The position numbers and the translations under genes are program-made. Positions 4,960-34,728 of a stretch of DNA of 52,187 nucleotides are shown here, in pieces. Position 1 is the stretch's first letter; the number at the start of each line of letters is the position of its first letter. The stretch is from an uncultured Candidatus Saccharibacteria bacterium. Lineage in GTDB: Bacteria; Patescibacteriota; Minisyncoccia; Phycocordibacterales; JAACPR01. A model generated the notes under the pieces. That model made no database searches. It was not told where the DNA came from and saw only the letters and a list, made by a program, of their open reading frames with translations. The stretch spans positions 2,665-54,851 of the forward strand of contig CAZDRR010000002.1 of the NCBI GenBank assembly GCA_964507955.1, given 5' to 3'.

Positions 4960-5000
4960 CAATTAAAAAGGTGGACCCAAAGGGTCCACCTTTTTAATTG
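4960..5000. terminator. Perfect 19-bp inverted repeat, GGACCC-N3-GGGTCC family copy 1
   Basis: caattaaaaaggtggaccc-aaa-gggtccacctttttaattg directly after murC. Confidence 0.85.
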
Positions 5001-5035
5001 CTAATCAATACAAGCTACCTTATAATAAAAGACAA

Positions 5036-6904: not shown

Positions 6905-7651
6905 TTTTCTTAGTATTATTTTTAAAATCCAAAATATATAACTTTGAAAATAATTAGGATATTGTTTTTTATAGTTTTTAATAGTCTTGAAACTATTTAT
7001 TGTTTGCCTTAAATTTTTTGTTTGTGTCTCTCCATCGGGGTTAATCAAATATTCTGTTGTATATTCATCTAAATTTATAAATTTTCCAATAAGACCGAGT
7101 TTTAACCATAATGCGTAATCTTCCAATAAATAATTTTCAACCTTATAAGGATCTTTCTCTAAAACCTCTTTTCTAAATACTACAGTTGAATGAATGAAAG
7201 GATTTTTTCTTAGTATTTTTTTTCTGATTGATATGTCACTGATTGGGTAGTTACTTTTTTTTAGAATTTGACCTTTTTTAAAAAAGGCTTGAGTTCCAAC
7301 AAGAACATAGTCCTTATTGCTTTCTAAGAAATCTATTTGCTTCTCAAGCTTGTCTTCTGTTATCCATATGTCATCTCCATCTATTCTTGCTATATATTCT
7401 CCTTTTGCGATAGAGATACCATTATTGAGGTTTTTTATTAGGCCAAGGTTAGTATTATTTTTTATATAGACTATCCTTGAATCGTTAAAAGAACGAATAA
7501 TATCATCTGTCTTGTCGGATGAACAATCATTAATTATGATAAGTTCAAAATTTTTATATGTTTGTTGTAGTACGCTCTTAATTGAGCGAGTTAATGTTTT
7601 TTCAACATTGAAAGCTGGAAGTATTATGCTTATTTTTATATCTGTATCCAT
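6884..7651 (-). CDS. Glycosyltransferase family 2
   Basis: ISIILPAFN, IINDCSSD, ARIDGDD, HSTVVFRK, EDYALW. Confidence 0.9.
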   Translation of the reverse strand: MDTDIKISIILPAFNVEKTLTRSIKSVLQQTYKNFELIIINDCSSDKTDDIIRSFNDSRIVYIKNNTNLGLIKNLNNGISIAKGEYIARIDGDDIWITEDKLEKQIDFLESNKDYVLVGTQAFFKKGQILKKSNYPISDISIRKKILRKNPFIHSTVVFRKEVLEKDPYKVENYLLEDYALWLKLGLIGKFINLDEYTTEYLINPDGETQTKNLRQTINSFKTIKNYKKQYPNYFQSYIFWILKIILRKLLLNLK

Positions 7652-8418
7652 GTTTTAGGTAAAATATTTAATTCGTCTGATTTTTTGTTTGTAGTCCATT
7701 GTTTGGGTGCTATAACTATTTTACTAGAATTTTGATTAAGCCATGCACCCCACCAAGAAAATGTTGAATTTGCTATTATATTATGTTTACAATATGACAT
7801 AAGTATCAATTCTTCACATTCGTTTAGATTTGGGTTTGAAACATATACTGCAGTATCTACCTTTAAATTTTCTTTTACCCAATTAATATCATCTGAAAAG
7901 ATAAAAAAAACGGGTGAAGATATTAACTTTGTTATTTTTAAAATCGCATATTCATAATATGAAAGATTGCAAGTACCATGATATTTATTTGTTTTAGGAT
8001 TTGCAACATAATCACCACGGCGGATATGAATTGAAACTGAGTTAGAATTACTTTTGATTTGCTCTGCAAGTTCTTGTGCGGCGGGTGAGAGAGGCTCCTT
8101 AAGAGTAATCTCATTACGAATTATCTGCTCTATTGATTTAAAATATTTTTCAGACTGGAATAGATTATAATTTCCAGATAGTTTTGAGTATATTTTCTTA
8201 GAAAGTTTTGTTAATATATTTTCTTTTTTATTTATAAAAATAATAGATTCTGGAATATTAAATTTTTTTAATAAAAAGGGGCGGGAAGTATCTTTTAATA
8301 TTTCTTTAAAAAAAGAAATATTAAAAAGAACTTTTTTGTTTTTTTTAATTAAACTTCTACCATATGCATATTGAAAGAGTTGATTACCAAGCCCTCCTTT
8401 TATGTCTATTGTTTTCAT
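7636..8418 (-). CDS. Alpha-1,2-fucosyltransferase-like (GT11)
   Basis: GGLGNQLFQYA, SIHIRRGDY, IFSDD, IIANSTFSWWGAWL. Confidence 0.9.
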   Translation of the reverse strand: MKTIDIKGGLGNQLFQYAYGRSLIKKNKKVLFNISFFKEILKDTSRPFLLKKFNIPESIIFINKKENILTKLSKKIYSKLSGNYNLFQSEKYFKSIEQIIRNEITLKEPLSPAAQELAEQIKSNSNSVSIHIRRGDYVANPKTNKYHGTCNLSYYEYAILKITKLISSPVFFIFSDDINWVKENLKVDTAVYVSNPNLNECEELILMSYCKHNIIANSTFSWWGAWLNQNSSKIVIAPKQWTTNKKSDELNILPKTWIQI

Positions 8419-8427
8419 GGTTTTTAA

Positions 8428-9192
8428 CTATTTTTTAATAAACCAGAAACAGCCGCATGCATAATAAGAATCTTTTATATCTTCTTTTTTTGCATATCTT
8501 ATTAATCCTCCTTGTTCATCTCTTTCTGGTATAAATGCAAATTCTTTTAATTCGAATTGTTCATCACATACCATACTAATAATTTGATCATAGGAATATA
8601 TTCTGTGAGCGTTATACTCTATTCGGGGTGTTTTGCCTATTGGTACGACTATAAGTAAAGATCCTTCTTTTTTAACTACTCTTTTTAATTCATTAACTGC
8701 TTTAATGTCATCATTTGGACCTACAGGATCACCATACCTTCCTATTCCTACATGTTCGATTGTATGCATACATGATAATGAAGATAGGGAGTTTGATTCA
8801 AAAGGTAAATTACATAAGTCTCCAGGGTGTGTTTCTAAGTCAGATAAAATAAGATCTGCTGGTCTATAATCGTAAAATTTTATTGGTGTGAAAGCAGATA
8901 CGATACCTGCAAAAAAAAGACTTGAAGATATATCTGTATGAAAATCAGGATTTATTTCTCGTACAACTCTTGCTGCCCAGGATGTATGGTAAACATAATG
9001 TCTGTCAAAATGCGTTGTCTTGGTTCTCTCATTTGTAATAGGGTATAGATCTAATGGTGAAATCTTAAAACCTCTTTTTTTGTCTGATAATTTTTTAAAT
9101 TTCAGTAATTGAAATAGTACAATCACTGATTTTGGATTTCTTAGTACTCTATAAAATTTAAATAATATCTTTCTAATTTTGTGATTATTCAT
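8428..9192 (-). CDS. DUF268-like SAM-dependent methyltransferase-fold protein
   Basis: DRHYVYHTSWAAR, SLSCMHTIEHVGIGRYGDP, LLIVVP...NAHRIY. Confidence 0.75.
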   Translation of the reverse strand: MNNHKIRKILFKFYRVLRNPKSVIVLFQLLKFKKLSDKKRGFKISPLDLYPITNERTKTTHFDRHYVYHTSWAARVVREINPDFHTDISSSLFFAGIVSAFTPIKFYDYRPADLILSDLETHPGDLCNLPFESNSLSSLSCMHTIEHVGIGRYGDPVGPNDDIKAVNELKRVVKKEGSLLIVVPIGKTPRIEYNAHRIYSYDQIISMVCDEQFELKEFAFIPERDEQGGLIRYAKKEDIKDSYYACGCFWFIKK

Positions 9193-9195
9193 GTT

Positions 9196-9891
9196 TCAAT
9201 CATTAAGCTTGTAATCTTCATTAATATAAAGAGTATTTATATATGTTTCTGCAATTTTTCTATAACGTATTTCTTTCATAAAAGAATCATATTCTTCATT
9301 TACCTTTTCTCCTCGTTTATTTTTTTCATACTCAAGTGTTTCAAGTAATATGAATGAGGGTCTATATTTATTCCAATTATTTGTTTTTAAAATTTCAAGA
9401 TCGTATCCTTCGGTATCTATAGACATAAAATCTATATGTTTATCTTGCACATAGAAATCGAGTACATTCTCCAACCTTTTTGTATCTATATTAAGAACAC
9501 TTTTAATTTTATGTCCCATTAATTCATATTTATCTGCGATTTCTTTATCAAATGTAGACAGAGTATCTTCTTTAAATAGGTAAAAAGGAAGGATGGATTC
9601 TGTACTAGAAATTCCTATATTTAAATTTATATCTTTTGGCCTTTTCTTTTTAAATAATTGTAGATTAAATGGATTAGGTTCGATATTAATTCCATGCCAA
9701 CCCAGTCTATTTAATAGGTAGGTGTTATTTAACTTCTTTGGATGATTTGCTCCTATATCAATGTAAAAACCTTTATAATTCGGTTTATTAATTATACTAA
9801 GTAGTATAATATCTTCGCCATTTTGAGAGTACACGACTTGGCTTCCAAATAACTTTAATCTTATCTTCCTAATTAATTCAAAGTATTTCAT
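9196..9891 (-). CDS. FkbM-family methyltransferase
   Basis: YSQNGED, YIDIGANHP...NNT, GWHGINIEPNP, FMSIDTEGYD. Confidence 0.9.
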   Translation of the reverse strand: MKYFELIRKIRLKLFGSQVVYSQNGEDIILLSIINKPNYKGFYIDIGANHPKKLNNTYLLNRLGWHGINIEPNPFNLQLFKKKRPKDINLNIGISSTESILPFYLFKEDTLSTFDKEIADKYELMGHKIKSVLNIDTKRLENVLDFYVQDKHIDFMSIDTEGYDLEILKTNNWNKYRPSFILLETLEYEKNKRGEKVNEEYDSFMKEIRYRKIAETYINTLYINEDYKLND

Positions 9892-10811
9892 TTTTTGTAG
9901 TTATTAATTATCTCTAAGTAAATTTCAGTAGTTTTTTTATTTGTAAAGTTTTGTTCGTTGTATTGTCTTGGCGTAAATGTATTAAGTTTATTTAAAAATA
10001 TATTTAATTTTTCTTCAAAATCAAGACTATCTTTAAAGGTTAGACCACACTCGTCGGTTAGATAAGGACAACTGATTTTTTCTGATGACCAAGAATATTC
10101 TTTATATTGCCACATTTGATTATCCCATACAAGGGTAGGCACGTTTCTTGCCCAGGCTTCATGTAAGGCCAAACCCTGACTTTCAGAAGGAGACAAATAT
10201 ATCATAAATTTAGATTTATTTAGTTCCTCAAAATATTCTTTCTGATTAAAATCTCCATAAGAGAGTAATTTATATTTTTCTCCTCTCTTATCTAGTGTTT
10301 GCAAGATATCTTGCAGCAATTTTTCGGGTATATTTTTTATGAAAATTAAAATAGTATTCTTATTTTGTTTTTCCGTGGGATTATTAATGCAGAAAACACC
10401 AGATGGCCATATTTTTATTTTGTTCTCCAGAGAAGGCTTTATTGAGCAGAAAAAATCTTTAGGCCACTTTGAGGGGAAGAGTATGATATCAATTTCTTCA
10501 TTAGTAAGTATTGCGTTTGAGTCTTCGGGTGTGACGGATATTATTGGGCCTGCTACTAATATAAAGTTTTGTTTTTTTACTTTAGCATTTATCATACTCT
10601 TTAATGCTTCAACACCACTTAGTACATGAATAATTTTATACTTTGCTTTTAAAGGATTTACTTCAAATTTAATATTAAGTTCTTGTAGTCCAGATATTAA
10701 ACTTTTGAACACTGCATCAGGTCCTGTTTTTTTTCTTATTATTTTTTTAAAAACCCACTTCCAAAATTCTTTTTTAAGAGGAGAATTTGTTCTTGTATAG
10801 ATTGTAATCAT
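9888..10811 (-). CDS. Putative GT-B glycosyltransferase
   Basis: C-terminal EX7E motif ESQGLALHE followed by AWARNVPTLV; position in glycan cluster. Confidence 0.7.
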   Translation of the reverse strand: MITIYTRTNSPLKKEFWKWVFKKIIRKKTGPDAVFKSLISGLQELNIKFEVNPLKAKYKIIHVLSGVEALKSMINAKVKKQNFILVAGPIISVTPEDSNAILTNEEIDIILFPSKWPKDFFCSIKPSLENKIKIWPSGVFCINNPTEKQNKNTILIFIKNIPEKLLQDILQTLDKRGEKYKLLSYGDFNQKEYFEELNKSKFMIYLSPSESQGLALHEAWARNVPTLVWDNQMWQYKEYSWSSEKISCPYLTDECGLTFKDSLDFEEKLNIFLNKLNTFTPRQYNEQNFTNKKTTEIYLEIINNYKK

Positions 10812-10812
10812 T

Positions 10813-11463
10813 TTATTCTTTAATTATAACACCATCAACGGCGACCAATCCCGAAACTCCTAATGTTTTTATTGAGTTAACTTTATCTTTTGATATCAAT
10901 GTATGTAATATTTTTTCTATAGAAACTCCTATCAGTAAAAAAGGTATTGAAACTATCAGTAGTATTTTAAACTTTAAGAGCTTTGATAGAGGTAAAGCAT
11001 ACAATCTTGTTGAATAACTTTTTTCTTTTTCTAAGAAATTATAAGTATTAGAATTCCAATTTTCTATATTAAAATTTGCATTTAGCATGTATCTGCCACT
11101 TATTTTAAAAAATAGTCTGTAATCATTAATATTTTTTATGTTTTTGATTACATGTATTGCTTTATATACTATAGCAATTTCTCCTAAACCTTTAAACTTA
11201 CTATTTATACAGAGCTTAATAATAGGATTATTTCCTAGATAGAAATATCCATTTGCTAAATCTTTGAAATGATTCTCATAGTTTGTTTTACCAGCTTCAA
11301 ATATAAATATTTGTGAAGTCGGACTATATTTTTTAATAGACAAAATCGTACCTTGAGTTTGAAGAAGCCTTTCTTTTTTTGAATATATTGATCGTATATT
11401 ACTATAAGAAAGAGGTTTATTGTTTGAATCTATTACAGAAATTATTAGAAACACATCTTGCAT
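10813..11463 (-). CDS. Hypothetical glycan-locus protein
   Basis: 216-aa ORF tightly packed in operon; ERLLQT...SIKKY and FFKISGRY segments resemble uncharacterised glycan-cluster proteins. Confidence 0.6.
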   Translation of the reverse strand: MQDVFLIISVIDSNNKPLSYSNIRSIYSKKERLLQTQGTILSIKKYSPTSQIFIFEAGKTNYENHFKDLANGYFYLGNNPIIKLCINSKFKGLGEIAIVYKAIHVIKNIKNINDYRLFFKISGRYMLNANFNIENWNSNTYNFLEKEKSYSTRLYALPLSKLLKFKILLIVSIPFLLIGVSIEKILHTLISKDKVNSIKTLGVSGLVAVDGVIIKE

Positions 11464-11469
11464 ATTTGA

Positions 11470-12348
11470 TTAATTAATTTTATTTACCAAGTTTTCCCAG
11501 TAGTCAATTTGTTTATTTGATAACGATGTATTCATCCAGGCTCTTGTTTCATCACCATTCAATATGTCTAGCAGACTACCAAAATCAAATATAAAAATAT
11601 TTTTGCTGCTTTTGGTAAGGAGTCTTTTTTGTAAAACTCTACCTGCGCACCCCATGGCTATAACTATTAGTGTAAAATTATCATTAGAAGCATCAATCGC
11701 TCCCATGGTTTCTTTTTCTATTCTGTCTATTTCTGAATATGAAAATTTAGGATTAGTTTTTATATAATCTCTGGGATGTAATACTTTCTCTACAATATCT
11801 GTTTTTAGGTCTTTGTTGCCTACAAATATAGGATTTGTTGATTTGATCTTTTTTAAAAAATCGATACAGGCATCTTCATTTGAAACTGCTAAATATGAAA
11901 GTGCTACATGAGAATATATCTTTTCTCCTATAAAGTATTTAAAACACTTTTTTAGAATGGAGCTTGCCCATTCATCTGATGAACTATGATACCCGGGTCG
12001 CATATCATGTTCTTTTCCAAATTTTTCAGAATGTATTGGAAGACATTTGTATATATGATCACCATTCAATTCAAAAGCTTCTCTCATTTCATATGAAAAT
12101 GTATTTGAGGAATACTGTAATAAATCATCCAGTCCTAATAATAAATTTACATCTCCATCGCCAAAGCGCAGGTAAGCCCCTCTTTTTTTATTCTCTATTG
12201 CATTAGAAATGTCCTGTATTGTTTTTAGAGGCGACTGAATTTTTACAGAAGAAGGGAAATTAATAAAGGATATGCTTGTAAATAAAAATTTTATCTTTAT
12301 CCAATAAAGCTTTGATTTGTTTAAGATTTTTCTTATTATATATTTCAT
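11470..12348 (-). CDS. Putative GT-D fold (DUF1792-like) glycosyltransferase
   Basis: YLRFGDGD, VIAMGCAGRVL, IFDFGSLLD motifs. Confidence 0.6.
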   Translation of the reverse strand: MKYIIRKILNKSKLYWIKIKFLFTSISFINFPSSVKIQSPLKTIQDISNAIENKKRGAYLRFGDGDVNLLLGLDDLLQYSSNTFSYEMREAFELNGDHIYKCLPIHSEKFGKEHDMRPGYHSSSDEWASSILKKCFKYFIGEKIYSHVALSYLAVSNEDACIDFLKKIKSTNPIFVGNKDLKTDIVEKVLHPRDYIKTNPKFSYSEIDRIEKETMGAIDASNDNFTLIVIAMGCAGRVLQKRLLTKSSKNIFIFDFGSLLDILNGDETRAWMNTSLSNKQIDYWENLVNKIN

Positions 12349-13190
12349 ATTTTCAAAAAATAATCGGGGTATAGTTTGTTTGAAATTTCATTCACTGTGT
12401 TATTCCAGTTCTTTGGAGCTATAACTATATTAGCATGATTATTTAAAAAGGCTGCCCACAGACTAAAAGTACTATTTGCTATCACAATATATTTATAGGT
12501 ACTTATGTGCAGTAAGTCTAGTAGTGGGTCTTTAAAATTAGTCTCAACAAAGTTATAATCATTTTTTTCAGGTAAAATCTTTTTTGCGTAATCTATATCT
12601 TCACAAAATATATTAAATTTAGCATTAGGTTCTGTTCTTTTTATTATGTTAAGTGCTTCTGTATAATAGTCTCTGCTACAAATACCCTTTACATTTGGTA
12701 TGTTCAAATAGTCTCCAGCTCTAATATGTATTGCAACCAAGTCAATGACTTTGCTGTCATCTTTTTTCATATTTTTACTAGCTAACAAAACTTCTTTAAT
12801 TGAAGTTATGTTTTTTTGTACATATTTATAGCATTGCCAGTATCCATCAAAATATCCTTCACTTTTTGATAGTATGTTTGAATCATACATATGGGGATAT
12901 TTTTCTTCTATATAGTATTTAGATTTATTTAATATAAATTTAGGTATATGAGGTAATAAATAAACTAATATCGCATAAGGAAATTTTAAATGTAAACATT
13001 GAATAATTTCTCCCTTTGAAGCAATTTTAATATCTTGTATTCCTGAAAGTTCAAAACTTCTTGATTGATTTTTATTAAAAAAACTAGTATCAAATTTTAC
13101 GATTACATTTCTCTCTGCCGATAATCTTTTAGCAAAAGCATATTGAAAGAGTTGATTTCCAAGACCTCCAGATAGTTTAATTATTATCAT
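12345..13190 (-). CDS. Alpha-1,2-fucosyltransferase-like (GT11), second paralogue
   Basis: LSGGLGNQLFQYAF, FDGYWQ, AIHIRAGDY, VIANSTFSLWAAFL. Confidence 0.9.
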   Translation of the reverse strand: MIIIKLSGGLGNQLFQYAFAKRLSAERNVIVKFDTSFFNKNQSRSFELSGIQDIKIASKGEIIQCLHLKFPYAILVYLLPHIPKFILNKSKYYIEEKYPHMYDSNILSKSEGYFDGYWQCYKYVQKNITSIKEVLLASKNMKKDDSKVIDLVAIHIRAGDYLNIPNVKGICSRDYYTEALNIIKRTEPNAKFNIFCEDIDYAKKILPEKNDYNFVETNFKDPLLDLLHISTYKYIVIANSTFSLWAAFLNNHANIVIAPKNWNNTVNEISNKLYPDYFLKI

Positions 13191-14058
13191 TTTTATATTT
13201 CATTATTAAATCTATCCAATAGGGCATAAATAGGGCTTTTTTATCTGATTTGTTAATTATGTTTTCAAACATATCACTCAAATTTTCTTCTGTATATTTT
13301 TCCAAATCTTCCCATTTCTCGATTACTAATAAGGGGAGTTTTAGTTTTTCGAAATATTCTGTAAAGACACTCCTCTCTACTATTGGTATTGAGTTTAAGT
13401 ATAAGGCCTCCCAAGTTCGGTGACAGTCCGGACCATTTCCTGGTGGCGAAGCTATAAATTTATATCTTGAAGATATATCAAAGTATTCCCTCTGAACAAG
13501 GCGTGAAGTTGTTGTTTCCGCTAAGGGTAATTTGTCTAATATGTCTAATATTTTTTTTCTTATATTTATATTTGTGTTTATATTAAAATTGTAAAATATT
13601 TTATTTAATTCTTTTTCTGAATCCTTCAGCTTTTCTATGGATTGTATTACTATATTTTTTTTATCACCGAATCTACTGTAAATACCTATGGGAATCGGAG
13701 TAATTTTTTCATGCTTTAATAATAAATTTTCGGCAAACCAATGAATAATTTTCTTCTCATTCGCATAAATAAGAAAGTCAGTGTCTATACACATATCTTC
13801 GTTATGTGATATGAGTATAAAATTATTTTTTATATTAGGATAAAGAGATTCAAAAAAAGTTTTTAGATAATTTGTTCTTACAAATATAATGTCTCCATTT
13901 TGAACATCAAGAGGTTCAAAAGTTATTGATTCATCAAAGATATGTTGTGCTAAAGATCTAAAAGAATCCCCACTTATATATGGCCAATTAGTTGGTCGGT
14001 GAAGTTGAAGTGATTTTACAAAGAATCTTCTTATGAGAGTTTTAATTTTTAATAGCAT
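13177..14058 (-). CDS. Exostosin/GT47-like putative glycosyltransferase
   Basis: C-terminal KFIASPPGNGPDCHRTWEALYLNSIPIV motif; N-terminal YISGDSF. Confidence 0.6.
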   Translation of the reverse strand: MLLKIKTLIRRFFVKSLQLHRPTNWPYISGDSFRSLAQHIFDESITFEPLDVQNGDIIFVRTNYLKTFFESLYPNIKNNFILISHNEDMCIDTDFLIYANEKKIIHWFAENLLLKHEKITPIPIGIYSRFGDKKNIVIQSIEKLKDSEKELNKIFYNFNINTNINIRKKILDILDKLPLAETTTSRLVQREYFDISSRYKFIASPPGNGPDCHRTWEALYLNSIPIVERSVFTEYFEKLKLPLLVIEKWEDLEKYTEENLSDMFENIINKSDKKALFMPYWIDLIMKYKNDNN

Positions 14059-14061
14059 AAT

Positions 14062-15360
14062 TTATTTATTAGTTAACATTAGCAGTATCATTTTTCTTGG
14101 TTTTTTAAATAAAAGTAATGAAATAGGTATTATTGTGTAAGAGATTAGTGTTGCTATCGCTGATCCAACTATTCCATATTGAGGTATTAATAATATATTT
14201 AATAAAATATTACTTAGCATTCCTGTACATGTAGAAATAAATATTACAAATTTCATATTTTCATTTATGAGATAACTTGTAGAGAGATTAGTTAAGAATG
14301 TTCCGATGTTAGACCATATATATATTTGAAGAACTGTTGCGCCACCTATGAAACTTGTCCCAAATACAACTTTTATTATCTCGGAGGCAAATAGTGTAGT
14401 AGGTAGTGCTATCAATAATGAACAAACTATTAATGAAAGAGTTAGTATCTTTAATCTCTTTATATATAGTTGTTCAGAAACTTTTTTTGCATTTACAATT
14501 GCGGGGAACAGGGAACTTACTAATATATTTGGAATTAAGTACCAGACTTCAGATAGTCTAACGGCTGAATCGTATAATCCAACAGATTCTGTATCAATCA
14601 TATATTTTATGAGGATTTGGTCCATTCTTGCATATATCAACGCAAAAGCAGAAGAGAAGATGAGTGGCCATGAATCATGTAATAGTCTATAAATAATTTT
14701 CTTGTCAAAAGAGAGATTTCTAAAAGAACCATATATTTTTTTTCTGTAATATATAAAACCTATTGCATATAAAATAGATTCAAGCAGAAGTACAAAGGCT
14801 AGGTATAGTACACCTTTATTAAAAATAACAACTGTTATTTTTAATAAATTCAAAATAATTGTTATGTATAAAGATAGTAATGAAGGAAATTTTGACTGTA
14901 CATTTGATTGAAATTCCAAATTTATTATATGGAAAGAATTAAAAAAGAACCCAAGACTTAATATAAAAATTAGGTATAAAGAAACATCTTTCGGAGAAAG
15001 TAAAAGCGCAAATGAAATACAAAGAATTATTGTTAATATTGAAGTTATTATTCTCAATATTAAAGCGGAGCCCAAATAGATGTTTTTTCGTTCTGGATAT
15101 TTTATTAAATCTCTGTAAAGTACTTGATCAATTCCTAATACTGCCAGAAACGAAAAAATAGATATAAAACTCAATGCATAACTTAGTTGACCGTAGTTAG
15201 TTGGTCCTAGATTTCGTGCGATATAGGCTGTCGCTATAAAAGAAATAATAAGACTTGATATCTTTCCAAAAAACATCCAGCCTGTATTTTGAAAATATCT
15301 CTGGAACCCAGTATGGTTCCATTTATCTATAAGGTATGTTTTTGACAGGTAGTTACTCAT
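14062..15360 (-). CDS. wzx: Wzx-like oligosaccharide flippase
   Basis: About 12 hydrophobic segments; ARNLGPTNYGQLSYA, RMDQILIKYM...VGLYDSAVRL, IPQYGIVGSAIATL. Confidence 0.88.
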   Translation of the reverse strand: MSNYLSKTYLIDKWNHTGFQRYFQNTGWMFFGKISSLIISFIATAYIARNLGPTNYGQLSYALSFISIFSFLAVLGIDQVLYRDLIKYPERKNIYLGSALILRIITSILTIILCISFALLLSPKDVSLYLIFILSLGFFFNSFHIINLEFQSNVQSKFPSLLSLYITIILNLLKITVVIFNKGVLYLAFVLLLESILYAIGFIYYRKKIYGSFRNLSFDKKIIYRLLHDSWPLIFSSAFALIYARMDQILIKYMIDTESVGLYDSAVRLSEVWYLIPNILVSSLFPAIVNAKKVSEQLYIKRLKILTLSLIVCSLLIALPTTLFASEIIKVVFGTSFIGGATVLQIYIWSNIGTFLTNLSTSYLINENMKFVIFISTCTGMLSNILLNILLIPQYGIVGSAIATLISYTIIPISLLLFKKPRKMILLMLTNK

Positions 15361-15399
15361 TTGTGTTCCTTTTTGCTATATGCTAAAAATACTACACAT

Positions 15400-17532
15400 A
15401 TGACAAAACACAATATCTGGAGTATTTCCATTATCGGATTATTATTTGCCTTATTATTTACACCACTTGTGGTTGCAACTAGTTTATATTTTCCATATGT
15501 AACTGGAAAAGTTTTTACTTTTAGAATAATAACAACAATTGCAATGATTTTGTGGCTTATTCTTATTGTTAATAAGCCACAATTTTTGCCTAAAAAATCT
15601 TGCATCATTACTGTTGCTGGACTATTTGTATTATGGCTAGCTATTGCGAACTTTTTTGGTTCAGATATACAAAATTCATTTTTTTCAAATTTTGAGAGAA
15701 TGGAGGGTTGGTTCACACATTTATATTTGTTTGTCTATCTACTTATTCTTTCTTCAGTGCTTCAGTCTGAAAAAATTTGGAGTTGGTTTTTGAATACTTC
15801 TATTGTCGTTGCGAATATTATCGCTTTGAAAGCAACCTTTGACTCACAATTAAGAACACAAGTTTTTTTGGGAAACTCGACATATGTTGCTATTTACATT
15901 CTATTTAATCTTTTCTTTACAGTATTGTTTTTATACAGATTAATTAAAAAGAAAACCAAAGAAGATGCATTAAAATATTTTGGGATTATTTACTATATTT
16001 CTTCAATTATTTTATTCGTGTATGTTATTTTTAGAACTCAAACCAGAGGTACTGTTCTTGCATTAGTTTTCTCTTTTATTCTATTTCTTATTTTATCCGC
16101 GATATCTTATTGGAAAAATAAAAAAGTAAGAATTGTAGCAAGTATACTTTTGATTGTGGCCATTGCTGGTTCTGTGGTGTTTTGGCAAAATCGTGATATT
16201 GCTTTTATTCAAAATAATCCATTACTTGCTAGAATCGCAACAATCTCGGCATCAGAAGGTACTGGTAAGGCTAGACTTGTTAACTGGGGTATTGCAATAG
16301 AGGGTATAAAAGAAAATCCTGTAATGGGTTGGGGACAAGAAAATTATTCTCGTGTTTTTGCACAAAAATATAATCCTAATATGTATGCGCAAGAGCCTTG
16401 GTTTGATAGAACACATAATGCGTTTCTTGATTGGACTATTCAAGGAGGTTTGATTGCATTATTGCTGTATATCTCTCTATTTATTGTGTCTATATATTTA
16501 ATTAAAACTTCTTCTTCATTACATAAGACTGATAAAAATATATTAGTGTCTCTTATTGTAGCGTATTCAATTCATAATATATTTGTATTTGATAATTATT
16601 CGAGTTATTTGATGTTTTTCACTTTGCTTGCGTATATCGTCTATCACTCAAATAAAGGAGAAATCAAAATATTTGACGACAAAAAGAATATTCAAGCCAT
16701 TTCAATTTTTATTGGAATTCTAATTGTTGTTGCTTCTTATTTCACAATTAGCAAACCTCTTTTGGTTGCTAATAATCTTATTGATGCACTTTCTGAAAAA
16801 GATCAAGCTAAGTCTTTAGATATATATGAAAAAATTATTAATAAAAATAGTTTCGGTAATACAGAAGTAGGGATACGACTTATGACTGAGGTACAAAAAT
16901 ATTTTTCTATTGATGATCCAAAAGTTATTCAACGATATGTTGATCTTACTACAAAATTAGGTAATGAATTTGAAAAAACAGACGACGTGAGAAGATTAGA
17001 AACATACGGAGGTTTTCTGATGCAGATAGGGGATGTTCAATCATCAATTCGAGTATTAGAAAAAGCAAAATCCCTTGCACCTAACAGACAGAATAACCTC
17101 TATACTCTTGGGATGACATATATAAATGCGAATAATCTTGATAAAGCAAAAGAAGTTTTTAAACAGGCATATGAGGTTCAAAAGGAAAATGATAGAGCAC
17201 GAACATATTATGGGGCTGTGCTATTGTTGTCTGGAGATAAAAGCGGAAGCGAATTAATAAAAGGATATTCAACAAAAGATGGATTCTTCCTTTCTATATT
17301 TTCTAGATTAAAGCAATATAAAGAAGTAATAAAGATAAGAGAACAAATTAAAAAAGATAATCCAATGGATTATCAAAATCAAGTTTCACTTGCTGTTGCA
17401 TATTATCTAGATAAACAAACTGCAAAAGCAATCTTAGTAATTAAAGATGTACAAAAAGCTGTTCCAGAGTTTAAACAACAAGGAGATTATCTAATAAAAG
17501 AGATGCAAGCAGGGAGGAATATAATTAAATAA
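15400..17532 (+). CDS. O-antigen ligase / O-oligosaccharyltransferase-family membrane protein with C-terminal TPR-like repeats
   Basis: About 12 TMs; TQTRG, ARLVNW...IKENPVMGWG.EN, DRTHNAFLD (Wzy_C motif); helical TPR-like C-terminus. Start moved to ATG 15400. Confidence 0.85.
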   Translation: MTKHNIWSISIIGLLFALLFTPLVVATSLYFPYVTGKVFTFRIITTIAMILWLILIVNKPQFLPKKSCIITVAGLFVLWLAIANFFGSDIQNSFFSNFERMEGWFTHLYLFVYLLILSSVLQSEKIWSWFLNTSIVVANIIALKATFDSQLRTQVFLGNSTYVAIYILFNLFFTVLFLYRLIKKKTKEDALKYFGIIYYISSIILFVYVIFRTQTRGTVLALVFSFILFLILSAISYWKNKKVRIVASILLIVAIAGSVVFWQNRDIAFIQNNPLLARIATISASEGTGKARLVNWGIAIEGIKENPVMGWGQENYSRVFAQKYNPNMYAQEPWFDRTHNAFLDWTIQGGLIALLLYISLFIVSIYLIKTSSSLHKTDKNILVSLIVAYSIHNIFVFDNYSSYLMFFTLLAYIVYHSNKGEIKIFDDKKNIQAISIFIGILIVVASYFTISKPLLVANNLIDALSEKDQAKSLDIYEKIINKNSFGNTEVGIRLMTEVQKYFSIDDPKVIQRYVDLTTKLGNEFEKTDDVRRLETYGGFLMQIGDVQSSIRVLEKAKSLAPNRQNNLYTLGMTYINANNLDKAKEVFKQAYEVQKENDRARTYYGAVLLLSGDKSGSELIKGYSTKDGFFLSIFSRLKQYKEVIKIREQIKKDNPMDYQNQVSLAVAYYLDKQTAKAILVIKDVQKAVPEFKQQGDYLIKEMQAGRNIIK

Positions 17533-18212: not shown

Positions 18213-18242
18213 AATAATCTGTAATTATGCTATATTTGCACC

Positions 18243-29636: not shown

Positions 29637-29701
29637 AAAACAAAAATATCTTTAAGAGTTAGGGCTCATTTTTAAATAACTTTTGAAGATATTTTTGTTT
29701 T
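29637..29701 (+). terminator. 25-bp inverted repeat (2 G-U pairs) with 15-nt loop after ligA
   Basis: aaaacaaaaatatctttaagagtta ... taacttttgaagatatttttgtttt. Confidence 0.6.
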
Positions 29702-29737
29702 AATGACATATTCTGTGATTTTTGCTAGTATAGCCCT

Positions 29738-30025: not shown

Positions 30026-31429
30026 ATGAGTCATACACATCTTACAATTGAAGAAATAAATACAAAACTTATTTCAAAAGAACTCACAGTTGCAGAACTT
30101 GTTGATGCATATCTTTCTACTATTTCTGAAAAAAATAAAGAACTCAATGTATTTATCAAGATACATACTGATTTTATTAAGGAGCAAATTGTCCATGCTC
30201 AAGCAATGATTGATTCAGGTAAAGCAACTGTACTTACAGGTATTCCAATTGCAATCAAGGATAATATTCTTATTAAAGGTGAAGAAGTAAGTGCTGCTTC
30301 AAAAATTCTAGAAGGGTATAAAGCAACATATGATGCAACTGTTATATCTAAATTAAAAGAACAAGGTGCAATCCTTATTCCACGAGCTAACATGGACGAG
30401 TTTGCTATGGGAGGTTCTACCGAATTTTCTGCATATGGAGTAACTAAAAATCCATTTGATACAAATCGTGTGGCAGGAGGTTCATCAGGAGGAAGTGCGG
30501 TTGCTGTTGCATCAGGAATGTCTGCGCTTGCACTTGGTTCTGATACGGGAGGTTCTATTCGACTTCCTGCTTCATTTTGTGGAATTGTTGGGCTTAAGCC
30601 AACATACGGAAGTGTTTCTCGAAATGGACTCATGGCAATGGCAAGCTCATTTGATGTAATTGGACCTTTTTCACATACTGTAAAAGATTCAAAAATTCTT
30701 TTTGATGTAATTAAAGGAATTGATCCTCTTGATCAGACAACAGTTTTAAAAGAAATTTCAAGTGAAGTTAAAAAAATTGGAGTACCATATCATTTTTTAA
30801 AGTCAGGAATCGATCAAGACGTGCTTGAAGTATTTAATTCAAATATTGAAAAATTAAAATCGCAAGGGTATGAGATTGTAGATATTTCACTCCCAAGTTT
30901 TGAATATGCACTTTCTATTTATTATATTCTTGTTCCAGCTGAAGTTTCATCTAATATGTCTCGATATGACGGAGTTAAATTTGGTCAAAAAATTGAAGGT
31001 AAAGATTTGATTGATGACTATTTTCAAACAAGAGGAAAACTTCTTGGTGAAGAAGTAAAACGAAGAATTATGCTGGGAACATATGTATTATCAGCTGGAT
31101 ACTCCGATGAGTATTATAGAAAAGCGTGGACTGCACGAAACAAAATCAAAGATGAAGTTAAAAAAGTTTTTGAACAAGTTGATGTTATTGCGATGCCTGT
31201 ATCACCGATGCCTGCATTTAAGATTGGAGAAATGTCAGCTGATCCTCTTAAGATGTATCTTGCTGATATATTTACTGTATCTGCAAACGTTGCTGGTGTT
31301 CCTGCAATTTCTATTCCTGCTGGAAACGTTGTACGAGAAGAAAAACAACTTCCTGTTGGATTACAACTTCTTGCGCCATGGCACGGGGAAGAAAGACTCT
31401 TTAATGTCGGACAAAAGTTTGAAAAATAA
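30026..31429 (+). CDS. gatA: Asp/Glu-tRNA amidotransferase subunit A
   Basis: GIPIAIKDN, NMDEFAMGGS, GGSSGGS, LGSDTGGSIR, MYLADIFTV. Confidence 0.97.
   Translation: MSHTHLTIEEINTKLISKELTVAELVDAYLSTISEKNKELNVFIKIHTDFIKEQIVHAQAMIDSGKATVLTGIPIAIKDNILIKGEEVSAASKILEGYKATYDATVISKLKEQGAILIPRANMDEFAMGGSTEFSAYGVTKNPFDTNRVAGGSSGGSAVAVASGMSALALGSDTGGSIRLPASFCGIVGLKPTYGSVSRNGLMAMASSFDVIGPFSHTVKDSKILFDVIKGIDPLDQTTVLKEISSEVKKIGVPYHFLKSGIDQDVLEVFNSNIEKLKSQGYEIVDISLPSFEYALSIYYILVPAEVSSNMSRYDGVKFGQKIEGKDLIDDYFQTRGKLLGEEVKRRIMLGTYVLSAGYSDEYYRKAWTARNKIKDEVKKVFEQVDVIAMPVSPMPAFKIGEMSADPLKMYLADIFTVSANVAGVPAISIPAGNVVREEKQLPVGLQLLAPWHGEERLFNVGQKFEK
31399..31422 (+). repeat. 24-bp direct repeat, copy 1 (3' end of gatA)
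   Basis: ctttaatgtcggacaaaagtttga. Confidence 0.85.
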
Positions 31430-31443
31430 AATATCTTTAAAAG

Positions 31444-32523
31444 ATGAAATCTCAAGATCTCTATATACACGAACTTGATATCTTAAGAATGTTTGCGGCC
31501 GTTGCTGTTGTTATTTTTCATTTCGGAATATGGTCATATCCATTTCGTATTGGATTAATAGAGCCTATATTTCAGAGTGCTAATATTGCAGTAGGTTTCT
31601 TCTTCTTTCTTTCGGGCTTTATTTTGGTGTATGTAAGTAGAGAAAATTTTAAAAAGTATAGTTTTGATATTAAAAATTTTTATAAAAAACGATTAGTTAG
31701 AATACTACCAGCTTATTTTTTGGCGATGTTTTTAATGGGGTTGGTGTACCCACTTCATTTTGGGTTTTTCCCTGATATAAAGCATTTTATTTTAGAAATT
31801 TTATTACTTCAATCTTGGATACCTGGTTCTGTTACAAATGTTAATTTTGTTGCTTGGTCTCTATCTGTTGAAATTTTCTTTTACCTACTTTTCCCATTGT
31901 TATTTAAGATGTTAATTAAAAATTCAAAGACTTTTGTTACTCTCGCATCTGCTTTTTGGGTCATAACAAATGTGTTTGTACTTCTCTCTGCTTTTAGTTT
32001 TAATCAAGATAACATCACTATTAATCAGTTTACAAAGTTTTTTCCATTATTCCATCTTAATATCTTTATGTTCGGAATGTTTTTTTCAAAACTTTTTATT
32101 ACAAAAAATGTATTTGTTTTAAAACTCCAGAGCCCAATAGTTTTTATTGGTACAATACTATTTTTTATTATATATGCTCAATTAGTACCTAATCAGATGT
32201 TAATTGGTCAACATGATGGTTTACTATTGCCATTATTCATTACTCTTGTTTTTGGAGTTTTCTCTCTGAAAGGAGTATATAAGAAGATTTTAAACAACAG
32301 ACTGTTTATGTTGCTTGGTAAAGCAAGTTATGGAATCTATATTTATCAGGTTGTTATCTACTATTTTATGTATTGGTTTTATAAAAAGATTGGAGTTTTT
32401 GATTTACTTAAAGAAGAAGGAAGGTTTTTTGTTTTTTTAGTAGTCTTACTTTTTGCATCAGTCTTGTCTTATGAGTTTTTTGAGAAAAAAATTAGAAATC
32501 TTTTAATTAAACATAAAATATAG
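31444..32523 (+). CDS. Acyltransferase-3 (OafA-like) integral membrane O-acyltransferase
   Basis: LDILRMFAAVAVVIFH, FFFLSGFIL, KRLVRILPAY, WSLSVEIFFYLLFP, LGKASYGIYIYQ, SYEFFEK. Confidence 0.92.
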   Translation: MKSQDLYIHELDILRMFAAVAVVIFHFGIWSYPFRIGLIEPIFQSANIAVGFFFFLSGFILVYVSRENFKKYSFDIKNFYKKRLVRILPAYFLAMFLMGLVYPLHFGFFPDIKHFILEILLLQSWIPGSVTNVNFVAWSLSVEIFFYLLFPLLFKMLIKNSKTFVTLASAFWVITNVFVLLSAFSFNQDNITINQFTKFFPLFHLNIFMFGMFFSKLFITKNVFVLKLQSPIVFIGTILFFIIYAQLVPNQMLIGQHDGLLLPLFITLVFGVFSLKGVYKKILNNRLFMLLGKASYGIYIYQVVIYYFMYWFYKKIGVFDLLKEEGRFFVFLVVLLFASVLSYEFFEKKIRNLLIKHKI

Positions 32524-32537
32524 AGTGAATAAGGAAC

Positions 32538-32561
32538 CTTTAATGTTGGACAAAAGTTTGA
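32538..32561 (+). repeat. 24-bp direct repeat, copy 2 (gatA 3'-end remnant)
   Basis: ctttaatgttggacaaaagtttga, 23/24 identical to copy 1; reads FNVGQKFEIL* in the gatA frame. Confidence 0.85.
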
Positions 32562-32574
32562 GATACTATAAGTA

Positions 32575-33579
32575 ATGGCAGAAATAAAAAAAGATGCACC
32601 AAAAGATGACAGACATTGGTTTATTGCTTTTTTTCCTGTAATTGCTTTATTATTTTTGATAATTCTCGGTTCGCGGATGAGTGGCGAAACAATCTTTGGA
32701 GAGAAAATCAAAAATGTAGAAAATGATCCAATTGCAAGTAAGAGAAATATTTTTAGTATATATGAATGGATTGGGACTGGTCCACTTGGAGAAGATATAC
32801 GAATTATAAATACAGAAAAAGTATCTGTTCGTAATCAGCCTGCAGGAGCAATTGTTGGTACACAAAACAAATTACAAACAGGTGTATTGCGAGAAGGTCC
32901 AGTTTTGATGTATGACATTGTATGGTGGGGTATTGACTATAAAGATGCACCAGATGGTTGGGTTGCACAAGAATCTATTTCTTCAAAAATAAAGACAGTA
33001 CGTTTTTTTAATATTATTCCCATTACATACGGTTTCTATAAGCCAATAGGGTATATATTATTGGTAATTTTATTAATACTATTTCTATATTACAAGTTTG
33101 GTCTTACAAAAGAGGAGGATATATGGAGAAAAAAACTAGAATTGAAAAGAGAACAATATAAAGAAAAAGAGATTCCTCTCAAAGAAGCTATTGAGCAAAA
33201 GCCTGATGTTGAAGAAATACCTGGATTTCAAACAGAAGAAATTATGCCTGTTGAATTACTAGAACAACAGGGGAGATGGCAACATATTCAAGATTTAATT
33301 AAATCTTATAATATGAATGATTGGCGCCAAGCTATTATTGAGGCAGATATTATTCTTGAAGAAATGTTAGAAAAGATGGGGTATGATGGAGTTACTATTG
33401 GAGATAAATTAAAAAATGTTGAGAGATCAGACTTTATTACTCTTGATAAGGCGTGGTCAGCTCATAAGGTTAGAAATCAGATTGCACATGATGGTTCTAA
33501 TTTTAAACTTACACGAGAAGTTGCGGAGAAGACAATCAAAGATTTTGAAGATGTGTTTAAAGAGTTTTATTATATTTAG
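32575..33579 (+). CDS. Two-TM protein with SH3b-like middle region and C-terminal HEPN/DUF4145-like domain
   Basis: TMs near residues 14-32 and 155-175; WWGIDY...DGWVAQ (SH3b-like); AIIEAD...TIGDKLK...AHKVRNQIAH. Confidence 0.65.
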   Translation: MAEIKKDAPKDDRHWFIAFFPVIALLFLIILGSRMSGETIFGEKIKNVENDPIASKRNIFSIYEWIGTGPLGEDIRIINTEKVSVRNQPAGAIVGTQNKLQTGVLREGPVLMYDIVWWGIDYKDAPDGWVAQESISSKIKTVRFFNIIPITYGFYKPIGYILLVILLILFLYYKFGLTKEEDIWRKKLELKREQYKEKEIPLKEAIEQKPDVEEIPGFQTEEIMPVELLEQQGRWQHIQDLIKSYNMNDWRQAIIEADIILEEMLEKMGYDGVTIGDKLKNVERSDFITLDKAWSAHKVRNQIAHDGSNFKLTREVAEKTIKDFEDVFKEFYYI

Positions 33580-33585
33580 TTAAAC

Positions 33586-33664
33586 AAAAACACTGCGAAA
33601 TTTTTCTGTTGTAGGACCCGGCTATTACACCACCCAGACTCCAGAAAAATTTCGCAGTGTTTTT
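33586..33664. repeat. Perfect 23-bp inverted repeat with 33-nt GC-richer loop between convergent genes
   Basis: aaaaacactgcgaaatttttctg-[ttgtaggacccggctattacaccacccagactc]-cagaaaaatttcgcagtgttttt. Confidence 0.85.
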
Positions 33665-34667: not shown

Positions 34668-34728
34668 ATGAAGATTATATCATAAAAGTTATTAGCTCTT
34701 AGTTAATAGCTTTGTTATACTGATGTAT
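34668..34728. promoter_or_regulatory. Compact divergent promoter region (pfkB-like / fba)
   Basis: Minus TGa-TATAAT (34679-74) 6 nt before ATG 34667; plus TGt-TATACT (34716-21) 7 nt before ATG 34729; imperfect inverted repeat aaagttattagc/gttaatagcttt between them. Confidence 0.7.

Follow-up and report, generated by a model that had tools for sequence, protein, structure and literature searches.

In a 52-kb window of DNA from an uncultured Candidatus Saccharibacteria bacterium, i.e. the whole stretch analysed here and compared with related loci labelled L001 to L098, a single acyltransferase gene separates gatA from the gene that adjoins it in most of the closest relatives, and the last codons of gatA are present on both sides of it. 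This arrangement probably results from one old insertion of an AT3-type acyltransferase gene between gatA and its downstream neighbour, with the duplicated gatA end being kept by two distinct constraints. The gene was gained long ago and is fixed; the locus is neither a live mobile switch nor an excising cassette. A preliminary description of this DNA had proposed that a lone acyltransferase gene inserted into the 3' end of gatA and that the last codons were thereby duplicated, and the comparison with relatives supports this core proposal. The features concerned are as follows:

30026-31429, + strand: gatA, encoding Glu-tRNA(Gln) amidotransferase subunit A, 467 aa, ending ...FNVGQKFEK-stop (Pfam Amidase PF01425, 456 bits)
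31386-31422, + strand: left of the two copies of the gatA 3' end (core 24-mer at 31399-31422; repeat comparison)
31423-31443, + strand: left junction, comprising the new gatA end AAA TAA (K-stop) and a 14-nt spacer, followed by the acyltransferase ATG
31444-32523, + strand: AT3-only acyltransferase (Acyl_transf_3), 359 aa, sole cargo (PF01757, 116 bits)
32525-32561, + strand: right copy, the non-coding remains of what was originally the gatA 3' end (core 24-mer at 32538-32561)
32559-32574, + strand: predicted extended -10 promoter (TGAGATACT) and 7 nt, abutting the ATG of the neighbour (motif and conservation)
32575-33579, + strand: conserved downstream neighbour, a 334-aa membrane protein

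A domain search of the window ORFs identified housekeeping genes on the flanks of the acyltransferase and returned no Pfam or NCBIfam match for the neighbour protein, and a generic sigma-70 and terminator scan called no terminator between gatA, the acyltransferase gene and the neighbour.

The window contains the 24-mer CTTTAATGTYGGACAAAAGTTTGA exactly twice, on the + strand in both cases, and the search for further copies suggested earlier found no third one there. The two copies agree at 23/24 positions, the sole mismatch (GTC vs. GTT) being synonymous for Val in the gatA frame, and none of 100 dinucleotide-preserving shuffles gave a match even when up to three mismatches were allowed; the duplication, its single silent third-position difference and the presence of exactly one gene between the copies (the ORF at 31444-32523) were thus correctly described. 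Similarity reaches further upstream (35 nt at 86%) and, by reading of the alignment, the repeat amounts to 37 nt with 31/37 identical positions, of which the extension from 24 to 37 nt contributes 8 matches over 13 positions and may partly be due to chance. The longest unbroken identity between the copies is 15 nt. The left copy is still translated as the C-terminus of gatA; the right copy reads FNVGQKFEIL-stop in the same frame as gatA, and its first 13 nt (GTGAATAAGGAAC) have decayed and contain an in-frame TAA at 32530-32532. The right copy is found in all six conspecific contigs (L001-L006, independent assemblies from different samples) and both copies in all five that extend to gatA, L006 beginning inside the acyltransferase gene, with the occupied form also covered by contigs of public runs. 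Because the copies recur in independently assembled conspecific contigs, the duplication is not an assembly artefact, a possibility the preliminary description had allowed for.

An empty site, predicted earlier to end in FEIL-stop, is indeed present in five sister lineages of the genus (L088, L090/L091, L095, L096 and L097/L098), where gatA encodes 468 aa and is followed by GTA and then by the ATG of the same neighbour gene, which starts 3 nt past the gatA stop (L088, L090, L095, L096, L097). These sites carry …TTTAATGTTGGNCAAAARTTTGAGATACTATARGTAATGGC. The exact 24-mer of the right copy of the window is found in the empty L095, and the left copy departs from this ancestral sequence by one synonymous change (GTT to GTC). 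More distant Paceibacteria likewise have gatA followed directly by the MAD/EKK… neighbour, none of them being occupied between the two genes, and no other cargo was found at this position in any relative examined.

The occupied form is found in three species-level lineages, namely the species of the window, L087 and L089, which have both junctions in common. The left junction, TTTGAA[A/C]AATAA in the window and L089 and likewise in L087 after a 1-nt deletion, stands in place of the ancestral GAG ATA CTA TAA (EIL-stop); GAG is retained in all empty sites and right copies, and GAA is found in all left copies. The right junction reads GTGAATAA[G/A]GAACC-TTTAATGTT… in all three lineages. As the left and right junctions are shared by the window, L087 and L089, the insertion, on the evidence of these sequences, is a single old event which predates the divergence of the three lineages. 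In a maximum-likelihood species tree, the occupied lineages do not form one clade and the empty L095/L097 and L088 are nested among them; their monophyly is nonetheless not rejected (AU p = 0.31), the gene trees disagree and the species tree is poorly resolved, so that some lineages may have lost the gene through a deletion between the repeats, or the cassette may have spread via flank homology. Database clusters number 3 for the acyltransferase at >=69% identity vs. about 50 for the neighbour protein at >=53% identity, and a scan of metagenome contigs with the neighbour protein as query yielded only two short loci.

Regarding the cargo, residues 9-340 of the protein align with positions 2-322 of the 326 of the Acyl_transf_3 model (116 bits for a cut-off of 31), and the translation displays an N-terminal …LDxLRxxAxxxVxxxH motif (ELDILRMFAAVAVVIFH) and an RxxR motif (KKRLVRILP), which we take to correspond to the TM1 histidine and RxxR conserved in OafA/Oac. 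PF01757 is the only domain matched in the 359 aa and a C-terminal SGNH/GDSL domain is absent, which rules out the two-domain OafA/OatA type (AT3 + SGNH); the designation as OafA-like thus stands for the AT3 part but not for an SGNH domain. The ORF is intact in all occupied lineages, although in L001 and L087 a CAG replaces the TAG and the ORF runs to the TAA at 32530-32532 (362 aa). Its dN/dS of 0.18-0.20 (about 0.19) indicates purifying selection, and its dS between lineages is 0.5-1.0, near saturation and similar to that of the flanking host genes. Because of these values, the cargo is considered old and functional, that is, as far as substitution patterns can tell, a vertically inherited accessory gene. 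Orthologues are 81% (L087), 69% (L089) and 58% (L094) identical. The GC content of 27.6%, vs. 31.5% for the window, was judged uninformative for a membrane protein. The enzyme probably O-acylates a surface glycan, the presumed substrate.

Phage Sf6 Oac, an O-antigen acetylase, is an AT3-only O-acyltransferase. Like Sf6 Oac and other enzymes of this kind, the present protein is a multi-pass membrane protein of about 330-360 aa with PF01757 and no SGNH domain; unlike the phage enzymes, to which it is 24-30% identical, its nearest kin are chromosomal Paceibacteria genes (37-58% identity) and its host has no LPS. The phage serotype-conversion origin put forward earlier is not borne out, and a module of this type was rejected as a candidate on account of the housekeeping flanks, phage matches of at most 30% identity and a search of IMG/VR without any match.

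Why the two copies have stayed so alike may be explained by what lies just downstream. The motif TGAGATACT sits at -16 from the neighbour ATG, with 7 nt in between, and its hexamer begins with G (GATACT). Across the window, TGn[T/G]AnnnT is found at -20 to -14 from start codons 8 times vs. 0.8 expected (P about 2e-6), and Shine-Dalgarno motifs are almost missing. The predicted extended -10 and the following 7 nt are unchanged in all occupied and empty relatives except L096, and neighbour homologues of distant relatives, e.g. L019 and L022, have TGnTAnnnT just 5' of the ATG. Besides, in comparisons among occupied lineages the spacer from the acyltransferase to the neighbour shows 73-88% identity, vs. 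24-45% for the spacer between the neighbour and pfkB and 52-58% for four-fold sites across lineages. A generic sigma-70 scan called no promoter in the remnant, so that the earlier claim that the downstream copy runs into the extended -10 of the next gene is plausible from the enrichment of the motif and finds no echo in that scan. Among RNA runs, none was found to contain the locus. The remnant would thereby serve as the promoter of the neighbour. A structured RNA was rejected, its fold being no stabler than those of shuffles (z = +0.85), and Rfam at permissive thresholds gave nothing in 31000-33000. The left copy is held by gatA coding and the right copy by the predicted promoter, whose role is deduced from motif and conservation; because each copy is under a constraint of its own, a recombination core is not needed to account for their likeness. 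Gene conversion between the copies is unneeded too, as the empty L095 shows the right copy to be the ancestral sequence.

These observations can be assembled into one scenario. An AT3-family acyltransferase gene would have inserted once, before the three species-level lineages of this Paceibacteria genus split, between gatA and the membrane-protein gene. The ancestral last ~40 nt of gatA would have been double-purpose, encoding the C-terminus (…EERLFNVGQKFEIL-stop) and providing the start-proximal promoter of the neighbour. A surviving insertion would then have this stretch twice, the left copy closing gatA with a new K-stop and the right one remaining in front of the neighbour, and the present near-identity over 24 nt would be the part of a duplication of at least 37 nt frozen by coding and promoter constraints; the 13 nt on the 5' side of the remnant, supposedly unconstrained, would have decayed and now act as a back-up stop for the acyltransferase. 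As for its origin, we infer a Campbell-type single crossover, site-specific or homologous, of a circle of about 1.14 kb carrying a gatA-3'-like segment. When a circle joins the chromosome by one crossover, the homologous segment ends up duplicated on the flanks of the insert (PMC3240628). Here, as in Campbell-type integration, the insert is flanked by a direct duplication and an element-encoded recombinase is not required; however, the duplications documented for such crossovers or for homology-facilitated illegitimate recombination are 109-950 bp long (PMC3240628), when only 24-37 nt survive at this locus. A more general route, in which small circles with one gene and a replacement gene end enter the 3' ends of housekeeping genes of Patescibacteria through an undescribed cassette system, integrated either by a trans-acting recombinase or by the recombination machinery of the host using a few dozen bases, seems decidedly improbable, and it is just as doubtful that the acyltransferase would be a fossil example of it.

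The preliminary description went further in viewing the 24-bp duplication as att-like, with recombination between the repeats able to excise the cassette and switch surface acylation. In a live or recently live cassette of this kind, the 24-mer would be an attL/attR core at which a recombinase encoded elsewhere would integrate and excise the 1.14-kb unit, akin to a cis- or trans-mobilisable element (CIME). ICESt3-type elements and CIMEs sit at the 3' ends of fda, rpsI and rpmG in Streptococcus, and classical CIMEs, down to 1.2 kb in size, consist of cargo only and are devoid of integrase (PMC7563491). The geometry is indeed what integrative elements show at the 3' ends of genes, as the insert occupies the final codons of a housekeeping gene, short direct repeats flank it, one of them in the target gene 3' end, relatives have an empty site and the target is restored by an element-supplied end, with K-stop replacing IL-stop. 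Unlike in these elements, no integrase was found in cis or in a tandem element, the site holds one cargo only and no strain-level presence/absence variation is seen, all conspecific contigs being occupied; no integrase, transposase or recombinase domain was detected in the 47 ORFs of the window, in agreement with the earlier statement that none is nearby. The excised junction that was to be looked for was found neither in the six conspecific contigs nor in the contigs of eight runs, where an empty or joined form is likewise absent, rare excision products being invisible in assembler contigs. The same junctions are fixed across three lineages at dS 0.5-1.0 and the repeats of L087 and L089 have drifted to about 16-17/23 (own count). 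Coding and promoter constraints account for how well the repeat has been conserved in the window. Neither reuse of the site by other cargo nor the same element in unrelated hosts was seen; acyltransferase relatives at other sites lack such flanking repeats, as do the L094 acyltransferase and a 1146-aa gene inserted in L090, and in about 100 loci scanned no other direct repeat overlaps an ORF 3' end besides this case and its conspecific copies. Excision would moreover be a one-way loss and hence no switch. Since the insertion is old and fixed with the same junctions at such dS, the att-like site and excision switch are unsupported, and a live cassette is very unlikely. Other mobile units were also rejected, namely an integron gene cassette (no end inverted repeat of note, no significant fold, no integrase in the window) and an IS or transposon (no meaningful terminal inverted repeats at the insert ends, no transposase in the window, a duplication of 24-37 nt vs. 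short target duplications of 2-14 bp).

Two further histories were considered. Under the tandem-duplication/random-loss model of gene-order change, of which mitochondrial genomes are the best-known case, the new spacer should retain a short piece of the lost copy and the relocated gene should be free of mobile-element features. Under a local rearrangement of this type, the acyltransferase would first have stood between ligA and gatC, as in L094; the block acyltransferase-gatC-gatA would have been tandemly duplicated or, equivalently, a circle of the block integrated into gatA, and random loss of redundant copies would have left gatC-gatA-acyltransferase together with the final ~37 nt of gatA copy two, kept as the promoter of the neighbour. 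This accounts for a remnant devoid of mobile-element features, and in L094 the acyltransferase (58% identical) does lie directly after ligA in the same syntenic block, its ATG overlapping the ligA stop, two independent landings within two genes of one another being unlikely. Besides, the 22 nt 5' of the acyltransferase of the window match a hairpin arm just past the ligA stop at 19/22; the 13-mer within this match has no further occurrence in the window, and none of ~2900 random segments reached that score. In L087, however, the match is weak (P about 0.05), L089 has none, and as the spacers between ligA and gatC are only 41% identical between lineages, an old relic should no longer match at 19/22. 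The model needs an ancestral acyltransferase beside ligA within the genus, an arrangement seen only in the family-level relative L094, when five verified empty lineages have no acyltransferase at either position, which would require several independent losses, and no ligA-gatC spacer holds a remnant of it. Nor does gatA show a donor-like tract in its 3' part, as would be expected if DNA of an L094-like donor had entered by homology-facilitated integration, identity to L094 and L007 not being raised in occupied lineages. All in all, a rearrangement is unlikely. Alternatively, the ancestor of the whole genus might already have had the acyltransferase at this position, with the empty sites being secondary and generated by precise deletion between the repeats, which would regenerate gatA…FEIL-stop and the promoter. 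The nesting of L095/L097 and L088 among occupied lineages favours this, and since recombination between the copies yields exactly the observed empty sequence, the site itself cannot separate the two histories. Against it, monophyly of the occupied lineages is not rejected, the gene is found in only 3 of about 50 genus-level lineages, the more distant relatives are all empty, and 15 nt of unbroken identity is short for RecA-mediated recombination; ancestral presence is thus highly improbable.

A single old insertion provides a clean and dated case of a streamlined CPR genome gaining a gene within a pair of overlapping, closely packed genes, by duplication of a stretch common to the end of the upstream gene and the promoter of the downstream one, each copy then keeping one function. 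It is also a caution against taking every near-perfect direct repeat that frames one gene for a live recombination site, as two independent constraints can freeze an old duplication; no long-standing question is opened by the finding. The motif pattern suggests that this genus may use start-proximal extended -10 promoters inside upstream coding sequence, and the distribution of the gene suggests that acylation of surface glycans is an accessory trait which few of its members have. Elsewhere in the window, a polysaccharide gene cluster is located at 6884-17532.

The locus is organised around a direct repeat, the 24-mer CTTTAATGTYGGACAAAAGTTTGA, whose two copies border a single gene encoding an acyltransferase of the AT3 family (AT), as follows:

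30026-31429: gatA (Pfam Amidase, 456 bits), the end of which is the left copy
31399-31422, + strand: left copy of the 24-mer
31444-32523: AT, the only ORF between the copies (359 aa; Acyl_transf_3, 116 bits)
32538-32561, + strand: right copy of the 24-mer
32575-33579: neighbour gene, 3' of the right copy, encoding a 334-aa membrane protein with no Pfam or NCBIfam match

The preliminary description of a 24-bp duplication with one synonymous mismatch, enclosing exactly one gene, an acyltransferase, is borne out: the sole difference between the copies (GTC vs. GTT) is synonymous in the gatA frame, no match to the 24-mer arose across 100 dinucleotide-preserving shuffles, and no further copy is present in the window. 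Upstream, the similarity extends to 35 nt (86%), or to 37 nt with 31/37 identities when counted by hand (31386-31422 vs. 32525-32561). Six independently assembled contigs from different samples contain the region, the right copy being found in 6/6 and both copies in the 5/5 that reach gatA (L006 begins within the AT gene); in addition, the contigs of eight further public runs were compared with the region, and several of these runs have contigs that cover the occupied form, with AT present between gatA and the neighbour, from end to end. An assembly artefact was considered and rejected, since the arrangement recurs in the six independent contigs and in the public-run contigs. The AT stop is polymorphic (window 32521-32532), with TAG in the window, in the conspecific contigs L002-L005 and in the sister lineage L089, and CAG in the conspecific contig L001 and the sister lineage L087; with CAG, the ORF continues for three codons to a TAA that lies within the right copy, the remnant of gatA (362 aa).

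The closest species representatives are Paceibacteria/Parcubacteria MAGs with a gatA identity of only 50-61%. A protein search with the neighbour returned ~50 genus-level clusters (53-89% identity), for seven of which contigs were retrieved. The empty site predicted in close relatives was found in L088, L090/L091, L095, L096 and L097/L098, where gatA (468 aa) ends in …EERLFNVGQKFEIL and a stop, followed by GTA and then by the ATG of the neighbour. In distant relatives, a neighbour homologue (N-terminus MAD/EKK…) also lies directly 3' of gatA with no AT between. The site is occupied, as in the window, in L087 (neighbour 89% identical) and in L089 (72%). The empty site of L095 holds the exact 24-mer of the window's right copy, from which it follows that the right copy is the unchanged ancestral gatA end and that the left copy gained one synonymous change. 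In the empty-site lineage L090 (6073-9513; also in L091), a 1146-aa ORF with no Pfam match and no flanking repeats lies between the neighbour and pfkB.

Both junctions are common to the three occupied lineages. The left one reads TTTGAA[A/C]AATAA, which in L087 has lost 1 nt and gives …ENNF and a stop, and the right one reads GTGAATAA[G/A]GAACC then TTTAATGTT…. AT identity to the window (81% in L087, 69% in L089) keeps step with the flanking genes which, together with a dN/dS of 0.18-0.20 and a dS of 0.5-1.0, indicates a functional gene with long vertical inheritance; judged from these sequences, the insertion is one old event. Only three AT clusters of at least 69% identity occur in the protein database vs. 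~50 for the neighbour, so that within the genus AT is an accessory gene carried by a minority. A tree built from concatenated ligA, gatC, gatA, neighbour and pfkB sequences strongly supports just one grouping, that of the window with L087. It gives L088, L089 and L095/L097 no firm position, and a single clade of occupied lineages is not rejected by the AU test (p = 0.31). Trees of individual genes and sliding-window comparisons of the ligA-pfkB block (window, L087-L097) exhibit a mosaicism suggestive of homologous recombination between these Paceibacteria species; given the tree and the mosaicism, a later precise loss of AT, or spread of the cassette via flank homology, may have occurred. Sliding-window identities swap partners, the 5' half of the window gatA for instance being nearest to L088, not L087.

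Regarding the resemblance of the two copies, it is not a property of the element, since they have drifted to ~16-17/23 identities in L087 and L089. As part of the gatA reading frame, the left copy is under coding constraint. The right copy lies outside coding sequence, yet is 73-88% identical among occupied lineages, for comparison values of 24-45% in another spacer and 52-58% at four-fold degenerate sites. Its invariant part, TTTGAGATACTATA[A/G]GTAATGGC, is also unchanged, synonymous positions included, in the empty sites except L096; GAG is retained in every copy preceding the neighbour, but has changed to GAA in all three left copies. Shine-Dalgarno motifs are near-absent window-wide in this Paceibacteria genome and the extended -10 TGn[T/G]AnnnT is 10-fold over-represented at -20..-14 from start codons (8 observed vs. 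0.8 expected, P ~2e-6), e.g. before gatC (29723-29731), secA (18228-18236), pfkB (34674-34682, minus strand) and a murC-like gene, which suggests that leaderless or very short-leader mRNAs are the usual architecture. The proposal that the right copy runs into an extended -10 agrees with this enrichment and with TGAGATACT at position -16 of the neighbour, but a generic sigma-70 scan made no call at this predicted promoter. Distant neighbour homologues also display TGnTAnnnT near their ATG, sometimes within the last codons of gatA (L022), and the remnant exhibits no Rfam family match and no unusual fold. The gatA end would double as the predicted promoter of the neighbour, in which case only insertions that keep this stretch twice would be viable there. 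The first 13 nt of the remnant, which precede the conserved block on its 5' side, are decayed, as the predicted promoter constraint would leave them free; this decay would have created the in-frame TAA used as AT stop in L001 and L087. The right copy also contains a 10-codon mini-ORF, MLDKSLRYYK (32543-32575), whose TAA overlaps the neighbour ATG (TAATG) and which is found in L087 (MLSKSLRYYR), L089 (MLDKILRYYR) and, overlapping gatA, the majority of empty sites; a role in translational coupling on read-through transcripts is conceivable.

As initially proposed, a single AT gene was inserted at the gatA 3' end, as the empty sites attest, with no integrase nearby; the att-like, excisable part of the proposal is not sustained. 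Integrase, transposase and recombinase domains are absent from the 47 ORFs of the 52-kb window, every conspecific contig has AT in place, and the insertion is fixed in lineages whose synonymous sites approach saturation. The window comprises housekeeping genes (type IV pilin genes, ligA, gatCA, pfkB, fba, ribosomal proteins, pheST, gyrB, secA) and a polysaccharide cluster (6884-17532; GT2, two GT11, methyltransferases, Wzx, Wzy_C). The insert has no terminal inverted repeats, the joined (excised) form appears neither in the conspecific contigs nor in those of the eight runs (assembler contigs drop rare variants), no relative carries different cargo at the gatA-neighbour site, and ~100 loci examined yielded no comparable 3'-end duplication. 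The suggested switch of surface acylation falls as well, as excision would be a one-way loss.

As for the source of AT, the suspected phage serotype-conversion origin is unsupported, since identity to phage AT3 acetylases does not exceed 30% and an IMG/VR search returned nothing. The nearest homologue beyond the genus (58%) is that of the family-level relative L094, whose gatA and ligA are 65% and 63% identical; the next ones (37-43%) come in part from genomes labelled Paceibacterota/Parcubacteria, the two with inspected context having unrelated surroundings, and Bacteroidota homologues reach 33-36%. In L094, AT (4971-6041) lies in the same syntenic block but at another position, between ligA and gatC, with no flanking repeats and a likely ATG (4971) overlapping the last codons and stop of ligA. 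This arrangement suggests a local origin, i.e. tandem duplication of AT-gatC-gatA or circle integration of the block, followed by loss of redundant copies. A hint in the same direction comes from the 22 nt upstream of the window AT, which match a hairpin arm just after the ligA stop at 19/22 (none of ~2900 random segments scored as high), and from the 13-mer AAAATATCTTTAA, present at only two window sites, in the left arm of that hairpin, 14 nt after the ligA stop (29643-29655), and just upstream of the AT ATG (31428-31440). However, L087 and L089 show the hairpin match weakly or not at all, the ligA-gatC spacers hold no AT remnant, the 3' part of gatA has no donor-like tract, and independent AT losses would be required in all empty lineages, which makes such an origin unlikely.

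The locus is best read as an old, fixed single-gene gain in which a stretch serving both as gene end and as predicted promoter was duplicated, each copy being held by its own constraint. Integration of a small circle into the chromosome by one crossover would give exactly the observed topology; this crossover could have been either site-specific, the topology being like that of ICE/IME/CIME elements at gene 3' ends (PMC7563491), or homologous, a type of event after which the homologous segment was shown to be present in duplicate (PMC3240628); the data are compatible with either. That Patescibacteria in general capture cassettes at the 3' ends of genes by an undescribed route is improbable, and the loci examined provided no support for it.

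Elsewhere in the window, an ABC transporter gene contains a 34-nt direct repeat (85%; 1885-1918 vs. 3568-3601) pairing its first codons (MIKTIQFYKKVV) with an in-frame segment close to the C-terminus of the same protein (LIKTTPYYKKLV), the second copy being devoid of ATG; the similarity may be fortuitous or stem from an ancient duplication within the gene. Besides, the neighbour and pfkB genes, which are convergent, are separated by a spacer (33586-33664 and its L087/L089 equivalents) that forms a long hairpin, the arms of which vary between lineages with complementarity kept, the window loop bearing an extra GC-rich insert.
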